From Escherichia coli (GTDB taxonomy: Bacteria > Pseudomonadota > Gammaproteobacteria > Enterobacterales > Enterobacteriaceae), in assembly GCF_030013595.1 (NCBI RefSeq), contig NZ_CP122768.1: a DNA stretch of 64,000 bases; one strand, written 5' to 3'. The notes beneath the pieces are model-generated. The model was not told the DNA's origin. It ran no database searches and saw only the letters and a program-made list of their open reading frames with translations. The translations under genes were made by a program, and so were the position numbers. Positions 1,005 to 3,720 of the stretch are shown one piece after another. Numbering within the stretch: the stretch's first letter is position 1; each line of letters begins with the position of its first letter.

Positions 1005-1038
1005 GTCCCCTCGCCCCTTTGGGGAGAGGGAGAAAAAC
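1005..1038. repeat. GC-rich imperfect palindrome (CCCTCGCCCC / GGGGAGAGGG) ending in GGGAGAGGGAGAAAA
   Basis: Read directly from the sequence. It shares a 15-nt core with the element at 3679-3720. Confidence 0.4.
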
Positions 1039-1073
1039 GTGTACGACTTTAACTTTTTCGCAGTATTGCCGTC

Positions 1074-1832
1074 CTACAAAATCGTCTCTTCCGTCAAAAT
1101 CCTGCGCGCGCCTAAAAAATGATCCTGCCAGAAAGGTTCAGCTAACCGACTTACCCGAATGGTTTCCCCGGTGCGCGGCGACTCGATAAACTGACCGTCT
1201 CCCAGATACACGCCCATATGATCGGCAATCTCGCGGCTGTGGATATGGAAAAACAGCAAATCTCCCCGGCGCAGGTCGTTGTTCGCCACAATCGTTGCCC
1301 GATGGTAGTGATACATCTCATTGGCCGTGCGCGGGAGCTTCGCCTCGAGGATCTTGTTGTAGGCATAAAAAACCAACCCGCTACAGTCGAAGCCTTGATC
1401 GGGCCGCGTGCCGCCCCAGACGTAAGGCTTGCCAAGCTGCTGCTCCAGGCGGTGAATCGCCACTTCGGTGATGTTGTGTAGATGGTCGCTGCTTAAGAAA
1501 TGGTTGTTCTCCGCCAGCGCCTGCCAGCGTCTGTCACTTGCCTTGAGCGGCGCAGGAAACCATTCTGGATGCTGTTTTATCTGTTCGCGGTTGTGCTGGC
1601 GCAGCGCCTTTCTGCTTTCGGCATTGCCTTCCACAATATAGCTGGCCTGTTTTTTCAGATGGGTTTGGTACTGTTTTAATAAACGCGCACGGTTTTGCAT
1701 CCGCTGGCGGGCGGCGTAGCTGAAAGAGATATGTGATGTGGTGGCGCTGGCGAGTAAAGGGAGCAAAACGCATAACGAAAACACGCCTGGATGCAGAAAT
1801 CTGCCGAGCAAGAACGAAGACATGAAGGACAT
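1074..1832 (-). CDS. yafL: NlpC/P60-family peptidase lipoprotein YafL
   Basis: 252-aa ORF with a hydrophobic N-terminus and the NlpC/P60 Cys motif (DCSGLVFYAY). Confidence 0.8.
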   Translation of the reverse strand: MSFMSSFLLGRFLHPGVFSLCVLLPLLASATTSHISFSYAARQRMQNRARLLKQYQTHLKKQASYIVEGNAESRKALRQHNREQIKQHPEWFPAPLKASDRRWQALAENNHFLSSDHLHNITEVAIHRLEQQLGKPYVWGGTRPDQGFDCSGLVFYAYNKILEAKLPRTANEMYHYHRATIVANNDLRRGDLLFFHIHSREIADHMGVYLGDGQFIESPRTGETIRVSRLAEPFWQDHFLGARRILTEETIL

Positions 1833-2123
1833 AAACCGGCTGAATGAAGGTGAGAATTTTAAAAGACCAGAGGAGTAAACGGGATTATTAATTGCTTATT
1901 TGCATATTACTATTGAGGTTTCATAATCTTAGGAAATAAATGATACATGCGCTTTTCGGACTATTGAAAACTGCCCCTGTGCTAAATTTGTAAACCCTGC
2001 GCCGACAGGCTTGCGTAAAACTCTTTTGGTGATAATGTGAGCCTTCCCAATCCAGACTATTCCGATTTGGGATCCATTTTGCCGTCCTGGCGTGTGTAAC
2101 CGTTTTATCAAGGAATAAGCAGT

Positions 2124-2864
2124 ATGCGTAAAATCGCATTAATTCTTGCGATGTTGTTGATCCCGTGCGTTTCGTTTGCCGGTTTGCTGGGCAGCAGTAG
2201 CTCGACCACGCCAGTGAGCAAAGAGTATAAGCAGCAGTTGATGGGATCCCCTGTCTACATCCAGATCTTCAAGGAAGAACGTACGCTCGATCTCTACGTC
2301 AAAATGGGCGAGCAATATCAACTGCTCGACAGCTATAAAATCTGTAAATATTCCGGCGGCTTGGGGCCAAAACAGCGTCAGGGCGATTTCAAAAGCCCGG
2401 AAGGGTTTTATAGCGTCCAGCGTAATCAGTTAAAACCAGACAGCCGTTACTACAAAGCGATTAATATTGGATTCCCCAATGCCTATGACCGTGCGCATGG
2501 TTATGAAGGGAAATATCTGATGATCCACGGCGATTGTGTTTCCATCGGCTGCTACGCGATGACCAATCAGGGTATTGATGAGATCTTCCAGTTCGTTACT
2601 GGTGCGCTGGTTTTTGGTCAGCCGAGCGTGCAAGTGAGTATTTACCCGTTCCGCATGACCGACGCCAATATGAAGCGCCATAAATATTCCAACTTTAAGG
2701 ACTTCTGGGAGCAGCTGAAGCCAGGTTACGACTACTTTGAGCAAACCCGTAAGCCACCGACCGTTTCTGTGGTCAATGGTCGTTACGTGGTCAGCAAGCC
2801 GTTAAGCCACGAAGTTGTGCAGCCACAGCTGGCATCAAACTACACGCTCCCCGAGGCAAAATAA
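2124..2864 (+). CDS. yafK: L,D-transpeptidase-family protein YafK (YkuD domain)
   Basis: 246-aa ORF with a signal peptide and the YkuD catalytic motif HGDCVSIGC. Confidence 0.85.
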
Positions 2865-3602
2865 GCGCCATTCGCCTGGCATAATCTTTTGCCAGGTTTC
2901 ATTGCCCGTCAGCGGCTGTGTTGCAATCACCGTGACCACATCATTCGGTGTGGTCTGCGAGCTGAAGTCGATTTCCACATCCTGATCCAGCAACGTTGCC
3001 ACACCAAACGGCGCACGACGGGTGATCCAGTGTAAATTAGTCGAGCAATACGCCATTACATAGCGCCCGTCAGAAAGCAGCATGTTGAAAACGCCCTTCT
3101 GCCGCAGTTCATCCGCCAGTGAGGCGATATATTTAAACACTGCCGCCATGTTGCCCGGTGTGCGCGGGTAACGCTGCGTTAATTTATGCAGGAGCCAGCA
3201 GAAGGCTTTTTCGCTGTCGGTTTCACCGACCGGGCGGAAGTTGCCGGTTTCCAGTGATTTATAGCCCGTCAGTTGCCCATTATGGGCATAAGTCCAGTTA
3301 CGCCCCCATAACTCGCGGGTAAACGGGTGAGTATTTTCCAGCGCCACCTCGCCCCGATTCGCCTGGCGAATATGAGCCACCACCGAACAGGATTTTATCG
3401 GGTAGTCCTGGACAAGTTTGGCGATGGGGGAATTAAAGCTGGGTTGCGGATCTTTAAATGTGCGACAGCCTTTACCTTCGTAAAAGGTAATGCCCCAGCC
3501 ATCTTTATGTGGCCCGGTTCCACCACCACGCTGTACAAGTCCGGTGAAACTAAAGCAGATATCGGTAGGGACGTTGGCGCTCATCCCGAGCAATTCGCAC
3601 AT
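2835..3602 (-). CDS. yafJ: Class II (Ntn) glutamine amidotransferase YafJ
   Basis: The ORF track gives 2835-3629. I place the start at the internal Met so the protein begins MCELLGMS, with the Cys2 nucleophile typical of Ntn amidotransferases. Confidence 0.8.
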
Positions 3603-3678
3603 GGGTAACCTCCACAACAGCGGGAGCACATGGCCCCCGGCGAAGATTGATTAAAAAGTACAAAGGTTCAGGCTGTTA

Positions 3679-3720
3679 CCCTCACCCCGGCCCTCTCCCT
3701 GAAAGGGAGAGGGAGAAAAG
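3679..3720. repeat. GC-rich palindromic element (CCCTCTCCC-TGAAA-GGGAGAGGG) with the GGGAGAGGGAGAAAA tail
   Basis: A perfect 9-bp stem read from the sequence. It shares the 15-nt core with the element at 1005-1038 and has no flanking U-tract, so it is not a classical terminator. Confidence 0.4.

Follow-up and report, generated by a model that had tools for sequence, protein, structure and literature searches.

Gene context and parts of the elements

The 64-kb window (the whole stretch of Escherichia coli DNA analysed) contains a GC-rich element in the spacer between lfhA and yafL (copy 1, 996-1038) and another in the spacer between gmhA and yafJ (copy 2, 3679-3720). Both copies are placed between ORFs in the list for the window, the intergenic position that the initial annotation had given them. 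The lfhA-yafL spacer measures 97 bp, with copy 1 at a distance of 35 nt from the stop codon of yafL, a minus-strand gene. The gene gmhA is also encoded on the minus strand, and the tail end of copy 2 is 3 nt from its stop codon (3724-3726). The parts of both copies are compiled in Table 1.

Table 1. Parts of the two elements, with positions in the 64-kb window
Feature	Position	Strand	Description
Copy 1, left flank	996-1007	+	TCTCGGACTGTC; kind found beside type-A BoxC units, CTCGG-nnn-GTC
Copy 1, hairpin	1008-1030	+	C-arm CCCTCGCCCC (1008-1017), loop TTT (1018-1020), G-arm GGGGAGAGGG (1021-1030)
Copy 1, tail	1031-1038	+	AGAAAAAC; type-B outer flank, in place of the TTAGGGTGAGGGG of type-A units
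Copy 2, third block	3679-3688	-	CCCTCACCCC on +, GGGGTGAGGG on -; the CC(G) linker (3689-3690) leads to the hairpin
Copy 2, G-quadruplex-capable 21-mer	3679-3699	-	GGGAGAGGGCCGGGGTGAGGG; equals the HPG2 consensus as published
Copy 2, hairpin	3691-3713	-	CCCTCTCCCT / GAA / AGGGAGAGGG; perfect 10-bp stem
Copy 2, tail	3714-3720	-	AGAAAAG on +, CTTTTCT on -

The 15-mer GGGAGAGGGAGAAAA occurs in exact form twice only in the 64 kb, at 1022-1036 and 3705-3719 of the plus strand, and a third place was not found even with up to two mismatches. The chance expectation from shuffles is about 0.04, and none of 100 shuffles reached two occurrences. Matches to the pattern CCCTCNCCC-N(2-8)-GGGNGAGGG are restricted in the window to 1008-1030 and 3691-3713, with 0 expected. 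In each copy, GGGAGAGGGAGAAAA makes up the 3' arm of a GC hairpin together with the A-rich tail behind it, in agreement with the GC-rich hairpins and identical 15-nt 3' segment first noticed. Folding, proposed as a check, yielded about -17.9 kcal/mol for copy 1 (4+5 pairs around one G.A mismatch) and about -19.7 kcal/mol for copy 2. Against shuffles, both folds reach only modest Z-scores (-1.2 to -1.9), since shuffled sequence of this GC content is itself prone to fold well. The initial annotation had missed the third block of copy 2, CCCTCACCCC (3679-3688), and the left flank of copy 1, CTCGG-nnn-GTC, conserved in other family members. The upstream flanks of the two copies are alike, AAGGTCTCGGACTGT in copy 1 and AAGGTTCAGGCTGT in copy 2, a resemblance judged too weak to interpret.

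Intrinsic terminators, possibly bidirectional, for the surrounding convergent or tandem genes share with both elements a GC-rich stem-loop past a stop codon, here with stems of 9-10 bp. Rho-independent terminators differ by their 3' U-rich tract, which starts within 0-2 nt of the stem; such a tract follows the stem of neither element on either strand: an A-run follows it on the plus strand, while the U-run on the minus strand precedes it. The terminator scan called 10 terminator-like sites in 850-4450, neither element among them, and terminator and promoter scans found nothing at either element; the missing U-tract had been correctly read. In published assays on BoxC, the family identified below, promoter and terminator activity were both absent, and RNA polymerase was unaffected (cited in PMC4666352). 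Intrinsic termination is thus a very improbable role for the two elements.

Assignment to the BoxC family

Both elements are copies of BoxC, an already known, ordinary intergenic repeat of E. coli described since the 1990s. This small enterobacterial repeat has also been published under the names PIT (Hoyne/Maher 2000), TMECO, as a triplex motif (Holder et al. 2015, PMC4666352), and HPG1/HPG2, as motifs that switch between G-quadruplex, hairpin and duplex (Kaplan et al. 2016, PMC5100583). In a full unit, a C-rich arm is followed by the complementary G-rich arm and then by a further G-rich block, three blocks in all; the TMECO definition is CCCTCNCCC N3-6 GGGNGAGGG N3 GGGNGAGGG (PMC4666352). 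Type A has a TTA linker and the left flank ...CGGTC, type B a CCG linker and TTTTCT before the C-arm, and inverted A+B pairs are frequent. The K-12 type-A units that were read are preceded by ...CGGTC or CTCGGnnnGTC, and TTTTC[TC] precedes six of eight K-12 type-B units. In HPG2 motifs, the C-rich region is likewise preceded by a conserved stretch rich in T (PMC5100583).

The minus strand of copy 2 reads as a complete type-B unit, CCCTCTCCC-TTTCA-GGGAGAGGG-CCG-GGGTGAGGG-T, written through as CCCTCTCCCTTTCAGGGAGAGGGCCGGGGTGAGGGT, and follows the three-block definition throughout, with the type-specific flank CTTTTCT. The HPG2 21-mer has a single match in the window, without mismatch, located in copy 2 after the C-rich arm and the T-rich stretch as in HPG2. 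Copy 2 possesses four G3 tracts; the predicted quadruplex alone reaches -12.6 kcal/mol versus about -20 kcal/mol for the hairpin. Judged from its sequence, copy 2 is a solo type-B BoxC unit on the minus strand, beginning 3 nt past the gmhA stop.

The copy 1 hairpin has the same sequence as the first two blocks of the 'A mm' TMECO units in the literature, G.A mismatch included; CCCTCGCCCCTTTGGGGAGAGGG is listed for units 3, 7, 11, 15 and 21 (Table 1 in PMC4666352). Its left flank is also found beside type-A units at pstB-pstA and cstA-ybdD of K-12 and at alx-sstT of strains PSS-16 and JJ1887, and in a variant form at ygfF-gcvP of K-12. Copy 1 thus has flanks of both types: CTCGGACTGTC precedes the hairpin and the complement of TTTTTCT follows it. 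The third block is absent, its place and that of the linker being occupied by AGAAAAAC, and of the pattern CCCTCNCCC-N3-6-GGGNGAGGG-N3-GGGNGAGGG blocks 1 and 2 only are present. Lacking a third block, copy 1 can form the hairpin only. It has just two G3 tracts on either strand and would have no quadruplex capacity, in contrast to HPG1 and HPG2. Copy 1 is a collapsed BoxC derivative, a hybrid of type-A and type-B ends, and no strict TMECO. Of the common stem-loop architecture first assumed for both elements, the hairpin stands; beyond it, copy 2 is a three-block type-B unit and copy 1 a hairpin-only hybrid.

The shared GGGAGAGGGAGAAAA is the standard G-arm followed by AGAAAA, which is complementary to the TTTTCT that flanks type-B units. 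Being composed of the common G-arm and a type-B flank, it is shared by descent; it marks no functional site of its own, and the 15-nt identity defines no sub-family.

With the published TMECO units, the window copies share the full three blocks of type B (copy 2), the 'A mm' arms and type-A flank (copy 1), the intergenic position, the multiplicity in E. coli and the strain-variable loci. They differ in the missing third block of copy 1 and in their sites: the 23 TMECO sites of K-12 include neither gmhA-yafJ nor lfhA-yafL, since K-12 has REPs there. A repeat family not yet catalogued, or similarity by chance, might be suspected from two null results, as BoxC elements are not annotated in K-12 RefSeq, which gives no repeat features there, and an Rfam scan of positions 1-6000 at E<=10 returned chance-level matches only (E about 1). 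The exact match to the published BoxC, TMECO and HPG2 definitions and the chance expectation of at most 0.04 leave practically no probability for this reading, which is refuted by the pattern and flank matches. ERIC/IRU (consensus of ~127 bp) and RSA (~152 bp) are longer than the elements here (<=43 bp), for which BoxC gives a full account. The comparison with catalogued families that had been recommended thus ended at BoxC, one of those named.

Relation to REP elements

REP/BIME arrays with rayT/yafM resemble BoxC as short GC-rich palindromic intergenic repeats, and REPs occupy both sites in K-12 and most E. coli. The BoxC sequence is unrelated, however, without GCCGGATGCGGCG...CCGGCCTAC, and the GTAG/CTAC cleavage tetranucleotide is not part of the BoxC unit. 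Neither element contains the ~35-nt imperfect palindrome GCCGGATGCGGCG...CGCCTTATCCGGCCTAC of REPs. A REP consensus with up to three mismatches gave 0 matches; a looser regular expression detected a single REP in the window, at 46399-46431 and thus outside both elements, which upholds the distinction from REP initially drawn; the homologous 12 kb of K-12 hold nine REPs. In K-12, REP/BIME arrays occupy the two sites, accompanied by rayT at one of them: BIME-rayT-BIME lies between yafL and lfhA, versus the 97-bp spacer of the window, so one copy does sit at the K-12 rayT site as first described. At cstA-ybdD of K-12, a BoxC unit and a REP occur side by side. To our knowledge, no transposase is associated with BoxC. 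The spacer between A and B units resembles half a REP, a likeness judged too weak to interpret. Another difference from K-12, the extra 28075-28271 in the yafD-yafE region, looks like coding sequence and not like a repeat.

Allelic variation and proposed collapse of A+B pairs

Several alleles occur at both sites in E. coli. The gmhA-yafJ spacer carries BoxC, BoxC shortened by a slippage deletion of 6 nt (GGGAGA), one REP or a BIME, and most E. coli have a REP or BIME at this spot; BoxC and REP sit at the same junction, between TTCAGGC and AGAC. The lfhA-yafL spacer carries the BoxC hairpin, three REPs, hicB or BIME-rayT-BIME.

The alx-sstT locus serves as a model for copy 1. Strain PSS-16 possesses a full A+B pair, and JJ1887 has CTCGGTCAGTC-CCCTCGCCCC-TTTT-GGGGAGAGGG-AGAAAACGGTGCTC, which is the pair minus the segment between two GGGAGAGGG repeats. 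A collapse of this kind has been described as 'palindrome effect' (Holder et al., PMC4666352). Copy 1 would be the remnant of an A+B pair after loss between two direct GGGAGAGGG repeats, and the product of such a collapse would have the type-A left flank and the hairpin fused to the type-B tail. From alx-sstT we infer that the deletion may have taken place at lfhA-yafL itself. A full A+B pair allele was not found among the lfhA-yafL alleles examined, and copy 1 could have arrived there already collapsed.

Copy number and distribution

An 81-nt query with copy 2 matched by BLAST in 4530 of 5426 E. coli genomes, at a median of 7 and up to 16 places per genome; a 97-nt query with copy 1 gave a median of 14 places per E. 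coli genome. Only 26 of 31,310 E. coli places are plasmid-borne (>99.9% chromosomal). BoxC is a dispersed, intergenic, multi-copy repeat of E. coli chromosomes, and the small intergenic repeat family initially proposed is borne out by both medians. The initial annotation had named as adverse the case of two lone copies aligning to a known repeat class: such a class, BoxC, was indeed aligned, but with far more than two copies genome-wide.

In a cross-phylum contig scan, the exact hairpin-plus-tail pattern was detected at at least 120 loci in many phyla, with several copies per genome; the scan, with E. coli not among the matches listed, indicates breadth and not counts. The matches listed comprise Alpha-, Beta- and Gammaproteobacteria, Desulfobacterota, Nitrospirota, Planctomycetota, Acidobacteriota, Cyanobacteria, Chloroflexota and others, and among them the copies in other phyla are often embedded in longer genome-specific repeats. 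The AGAAAA tail is no obligatory end, since only 5 of 38 non-seed three-block units in the fetched loci carry a tail within one mismatch of it.

Non-autonomous mobile elements of a MITE- or REPIN-like kind, whose ends CTCGG...GTC and AGAAAAC would be read by a putative enzyme, might account for a multi-copy family with flanks conserved between unrelated loci, for the common gmhA-yafJ junction of BoxC and REP, and for the multiple copies in genomes of many phyla, which among the matches listed frequently lie inside longer genome-specific repeats. Target-site duplications, terminal inverted repeats and empty-versus-filled pairs were not found, however, nor was a gene flanked by BoxC units seen. 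The rarity on plasmids and the tail variation among the 38 units also speak against mobility, and no association with transposons, phages or plasmids has been reported (Holder et al., PMC4666352). A mobile-element nature of BoxC is improbable.

Position relative to genes and possible RNA-level function

Each copy closely follows a minus-strand gene, at 3 nt (gmhA) and 35 nt (yafL) past the stop. As REP-like stem-loops in the 3'-UTR, they could shield the gmhA and yafL mRNAs from 3' exonucleases or modulate translation termination near the stop. The presence of another stable 3' hairpin, REP or BIME, at gmhA-yafJ in most E. coli is compatible with functional equivalence. Among the matches listed (120 loci), the tail side borders on the 3' end of the neighbour gene in 51 cases and on its 5' end in 19, and stop codons within 50 nt occur 26 times on the tail side versus 12 on the other, a weak bias given a crude ORF caller and non-independent loci from the same genome. 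The negative promoter, terminator and RNA polymerase assays cited above disfavor such a role, as does the mixed orientation to neighbour genes in K-12 (Kaplan Table 1, PMC5100583); moreover, the lfhA-yafL site also occurs with hicB and then has no GC hairpin beside yafL. A 3'-UTR function is possible, if rather unlikely.

The type-B unit with its AGAAAA/TTTTCT flank may even constitute a module of roughly 45 nt common to many bacterial phyla and not an enterobacterial curiosity, a quite improbable proposal. If the proposal were true and the pattern owed to function, and not to convergence or recurrent horizontal transfer, BoxC might be a 3'-end element that is transcribed, or else the trace of a putative broad-host-range mobilisation system competing with REP/RAYT for the same intergenic sites.

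Proposed structure-driven turnover

The two elements are very probably best explained as BoxC copies, a solo type-B unit (copy 2) and a collapsed A+B pair (copy 1), that may be subject to structure-driven turnover. The mechanism is based on literature and inference. BoxC elements would lie as ordinary duplex DNA and, when single-stranded during replication or transcription, would form the stable GC hairpin. Full units might also adopt a triplex or a G-quadruplex, the latter predicted for copy 2. Together with internal short direct repeats, these structures could cause polymerase stalling, slippage and deletion, which would explain the quick turnover of BoxC sites between strains. We know of no dedicated function and no mobilising enzyme for BoxC.

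BoxC loci have been described as hot spots of local rearrangement, which the allele series at gmhA-yafJ and lfhA-yafL illustrate. Polymerase block was observed in vitro only, DMS footprinting detected no stable triplex in vivo, and TMECO loci were more variable than control loci (PMC4666352). Variable spacers could also be merely permissive, with repeats accumulating there instead of causing the variability. Conservation of the motif in distant phyla and the proximity of many copies to stop codons likewise count against this account, as neither is obviously expected of purely neutral junk.

For annotation of the window, the label BoxC applies, to copy 2 as a full type-B unit and to copy 1 as a collapsed hairpin. 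BoxC, single REP, BIME, rayT and hicB are alternative occupants of two sites within 3 kb, and both the 6-nt slippage deletion and the pair-to-hairpin collapse are seen as natural alleles. The region provides a clean local example of the fast turnover of small structured repeats in E. coli spacers.

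Identification of the repeat family

Both intergenic hairpins of the window belong to BoxC, a long-known repeat with many copies per genome; the intergenic repeat family proposed in the initial annotation was essentially right. The 15-mer GGGAGAGGGAGAAAA, which had been described as common to both, is exact in each copy (see table), and no third match was found in the 64-kb window with two mismatches allowed. Shuffled sequences gave a chance expectation of 0.04 matches. The sole window matches of the hairpin pattern CCCTCNCCC-N2-8-GGGNGAGGG are copies 1 and 2. The copy 1 hairpin, CCCTCGCCCC/TTT/GGGGAGAGGG, contains a single internal G.A mismatch; that of copy 2, CCCTCTCCCT/GAA/AGGGAGAGGG, has a perfect 10-bp stem. 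As had been remarked, no terminator U-tract follows either element on its 3′ side. A terminator scan called neither copy, and Rfam contained no match for either.

Both spacers were used as BLAST queries against 5426 complete E. coli genomes. The copy-1 query matched a median of 14 places per genome (maximum 27), the copy-2 query a median of 7 (maximum 16). Nearly all places were chromosomal for both queries, and the family is dispersed. Members at hrpB-mrcB, melR-melA and alx-sstT possess core and flanks as in copies 1 and 2. TMECO, earlier named BoxC and PIT, is defined as CCCTCNCCC N3-6 GGGNGAGGG N3 GGGNGAGGG; MG1655 harbors 23 copies, five inverted A+B pairs among them, with a TTA linker in type A and a CCG linker in type B (Holder et al., 2015, PMC4666352). 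The units have also been described as G-quadruplex-hairpin motifs HPG1 and HPG2, the latter having a conserved 4-nt T-rich region 5′ of the C-rich region (Kaplan et al., 2016, PMC5100583). BoxC is listed with the known stem-loop repeat families of E. coli (PMC2267715). The tail shared by copies 1 and 2, an A-rich end after the G-arm, is a documented feature of type-B units. The two-copy observation is confirmed.

Features of the two loci in the window
Feature	Position	Strand	Remark
lfhA	2-976	+	intact
Copy 1 spacer	977-1073		97 bp, between 3′ ends of lfhA and yafL
Copy 1	996-1038		hairpin element
15-mer in copy 1	1022-1036	+	exact
yafL	1074-1832	-	
yafJ start	3602	-	
Copy 2	3679-3720	-	three-block element, gmhA-yafJ spacer
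15-mer in copy 2	3705-3719	+	exact
gmhA stop codon	3724-3726	-	

Representative genomes were scanned for the hairpin-plus-tail pattern, yielding at least 120 loci. Among the matches listed, CCCTCNCCC-N3-6-GGGNGAGGGAGAAAA occurred exactly, in several copies per genome, in many phyla, including Nitrospirota, Planctomycetota, Cyanobacteria, Desulfobacterota, Acidobacteriota and Chloroflexota. An upstream third C-block was present in 89 of 113 of these listed matches, and the pattern was often part of longer genome-specific repeats (Desulfatibacillum, loci L099-L105; a cyanobacterium, L113-L116; Variovorax, L032-L036). Judged by these sequences, the tail is recurrent and not obligatory: of 38 other three-block units at the listed loci, only 5 carry it within one mismatch. 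A crude neighbour analysis of the listed matches counted 51 gene 3′ ends against 19 gene 5′ ends on the tail side; a stop codon lay no more than 50 nt away in 26 cases on this side against 12 on the other. This bias toward gene 3′ ends and stop codons is suggestive only.

Structure of both copies

Read on the minus strand, copy 2 is CTTTTCT-CCCTCTCCC-TTTCA-GGGAGAGGG-CCG-GGGTGAGGG-T, a complete type-B unit including the exact HPG2 21-mer. It could form a quadruplex or triplex because of its four G3 tracts; a higher stability is predicted for the hairpin. Copy 1, TCTCGGACTGTC-CCCTCGCCCC-TTT-GGGGAGAGGG-AGAAAAAC, combines flank and arms of 'A mm' units with a type-B tail in the place of the expected type-A continuation TTAGGGTGAGGGG. 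With no more than two G3 tracts per strand, a hairpin is the only structure it can form. The flanks of 17 K-12 BoxC units were read directly: ...CGGTC or CTCGGnnnGTC precedes type A, and TTTTC[TC] lies 5′ of type B in 6 of 8 units. These readings indicate that the identical 15-mer consists of the G-arm common to both types and the complement of the type-B flank.

An extra hairpin-plus-tail unit, CCCTCACCCCAATGGGGAGAGGGAGAAAAC, is located at K-12 yjdP-phnP (NC_000913 4314222-4314250; positions 73-101 of K-12 stretch L139), approximately 35 nt upstream of TMECO no. 22 and outside the published list of 23. It lacks the third block, shares the 15-mer of copies 1 and 2 and represents a further degenerate BoxC.

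Allele turnover

The window corresponds, in reverse-complement orientation, to K-12 at approximately 190 to 250 kb, where REP/BIME arrays occupy both spacers: three REPs at gmhA-yafJ and BIME-rayT-BIME between yafL and lfhA (7463-8358 of K-12 stretch L001). The earlier remark that copy 1 sits at the rayT site was therefore correct. At gmhA-yafJ, BoxC and REP/BIME occupy one spot as alternative alleles (window 3652-3719 versus 4126-4278 of L001), with the junctions ...TTCAGGC and AGAC(C)TTAC... common to BoxC and REP alleles. In 59 full-length rows, evenly spaced along the BLAST ranking, the K-12-like BIME was found in 50, a single REP in 5 and BoxC in 4. In all, 346 of the 5426 genomes carry the BoxC allele at gmhA-yafJ. 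Three of the four sampled BoxC rows have a 6-nt deletion of one GGGAGA of the tandem GGGAGAGGGAGA, a slippage product which breaks the stem. This allele occurs in strain 50579417; a 75-nt match of the same identity was also found in ECONIH1.

Among E. coli strains, lfhA-yafL is a hypervariable spacer. The BoxC hairpin allele is present in 127 of the 5426 genomes, three REPs without rayT occur in Nissle, and strain 98222 carries a hicB antitoxin gene. The allele series at both loci fits the published variability of TMECO loci, which far exceeds that of control spacers (PMC4666352). Conserved ends and the junction common to BoxC and REP may point to a mobile element, but neither a target duplication nor a partner gene or an association with plasmids was found. 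BoxC may also act as a REP-like 3′-UTR stabiliser, as both copies lie closely 3′ of stop codons and REPs stand in for BoxC at the same spot.

GACGG directly follows the yafL stop codon in the window, as at the start of the K-12 REP there, and may be a REP remnant. At K-12 cstA-ybdD (7666-7770 of stretch L132), a type-A BoxC with degenerate third block has a canonical REP approximately 30 nt away; besides substituting for one another, BoxC and REP can coexist in a single spacer. The window is REP-poor, with one REP (46399-46431, tilS-rof site) versus 12 REP units at four sites in homologous K-12 (190001-252000), and rayT is missing from its K-12 position. The nlpE-yaeF spacer (window 44064-44088) is an 'empty site' with approximately 23 bp of difference and a small bidirectional-terminator-like hairpin, AAAGCCGGAGAATGCTCCGGCTTT; in K-12, approximately 195 bp including two REPs are found there. 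The window lacks the dinJ-yafQ toxin-antitoxin pair of K-12 (window 1751-1984), and from yafL to yafK/dpaA approximately 230 bp stand for approximately 840 bp of K-12. Approximately 14.5 kb without K-12 counterpart (window 8478-23004) separate yafV from the aspV tRNA, at the location of a tRNA-associated genomic island; in K-12, yafT-ykfM-yafU take this place.

Origin of copy 1 and mechanism

At alx-sstT, strain PSS-16 carries a full inverted pair of an A unit, a spacer, an inverted B unit and AGAAAACGGTGCTC. The JJ1887 allele, CTCGGTCAGTC-CCCTCGCCCC-TTTT-GGGGAGAGGG-AGAAAACGGTGCTC, equals a PSS-16-type pair without the segment between two direct GGGAGAGGG repeats. In the 'palindrome effect', parts of both units are lost and a stable stem-loop is left (Holder et al., 2015, PMC4666352). 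Copy 1 has the structure of such a collapsed A+B pair. As no full-pair allele was found at lfhA-yafL, we infer a collapse there by analogy: copy 1 would be the product of an A+B pair at this locus.

According to work as cited in PMC4666352, PIT/BoxC blocks DNA polymerase in vitro, has neither promoter nor terminator activity and leaves RNA polymerase unaffected. Single-stranded BoxC adopts a triplex structure in vitro, and in vivo footprinting gave no triplex signal, as reported there. Natural alleles directly display slippage and collapse. Hairpin, triplex or quadruplex potential together with internal direct repeats would lead to slippage, deletion and replacement of BoxC, non-B structures presumably being the cause of the instability. 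The best-supported reading of BoxC is that of a structured, apparently function-less repeat.
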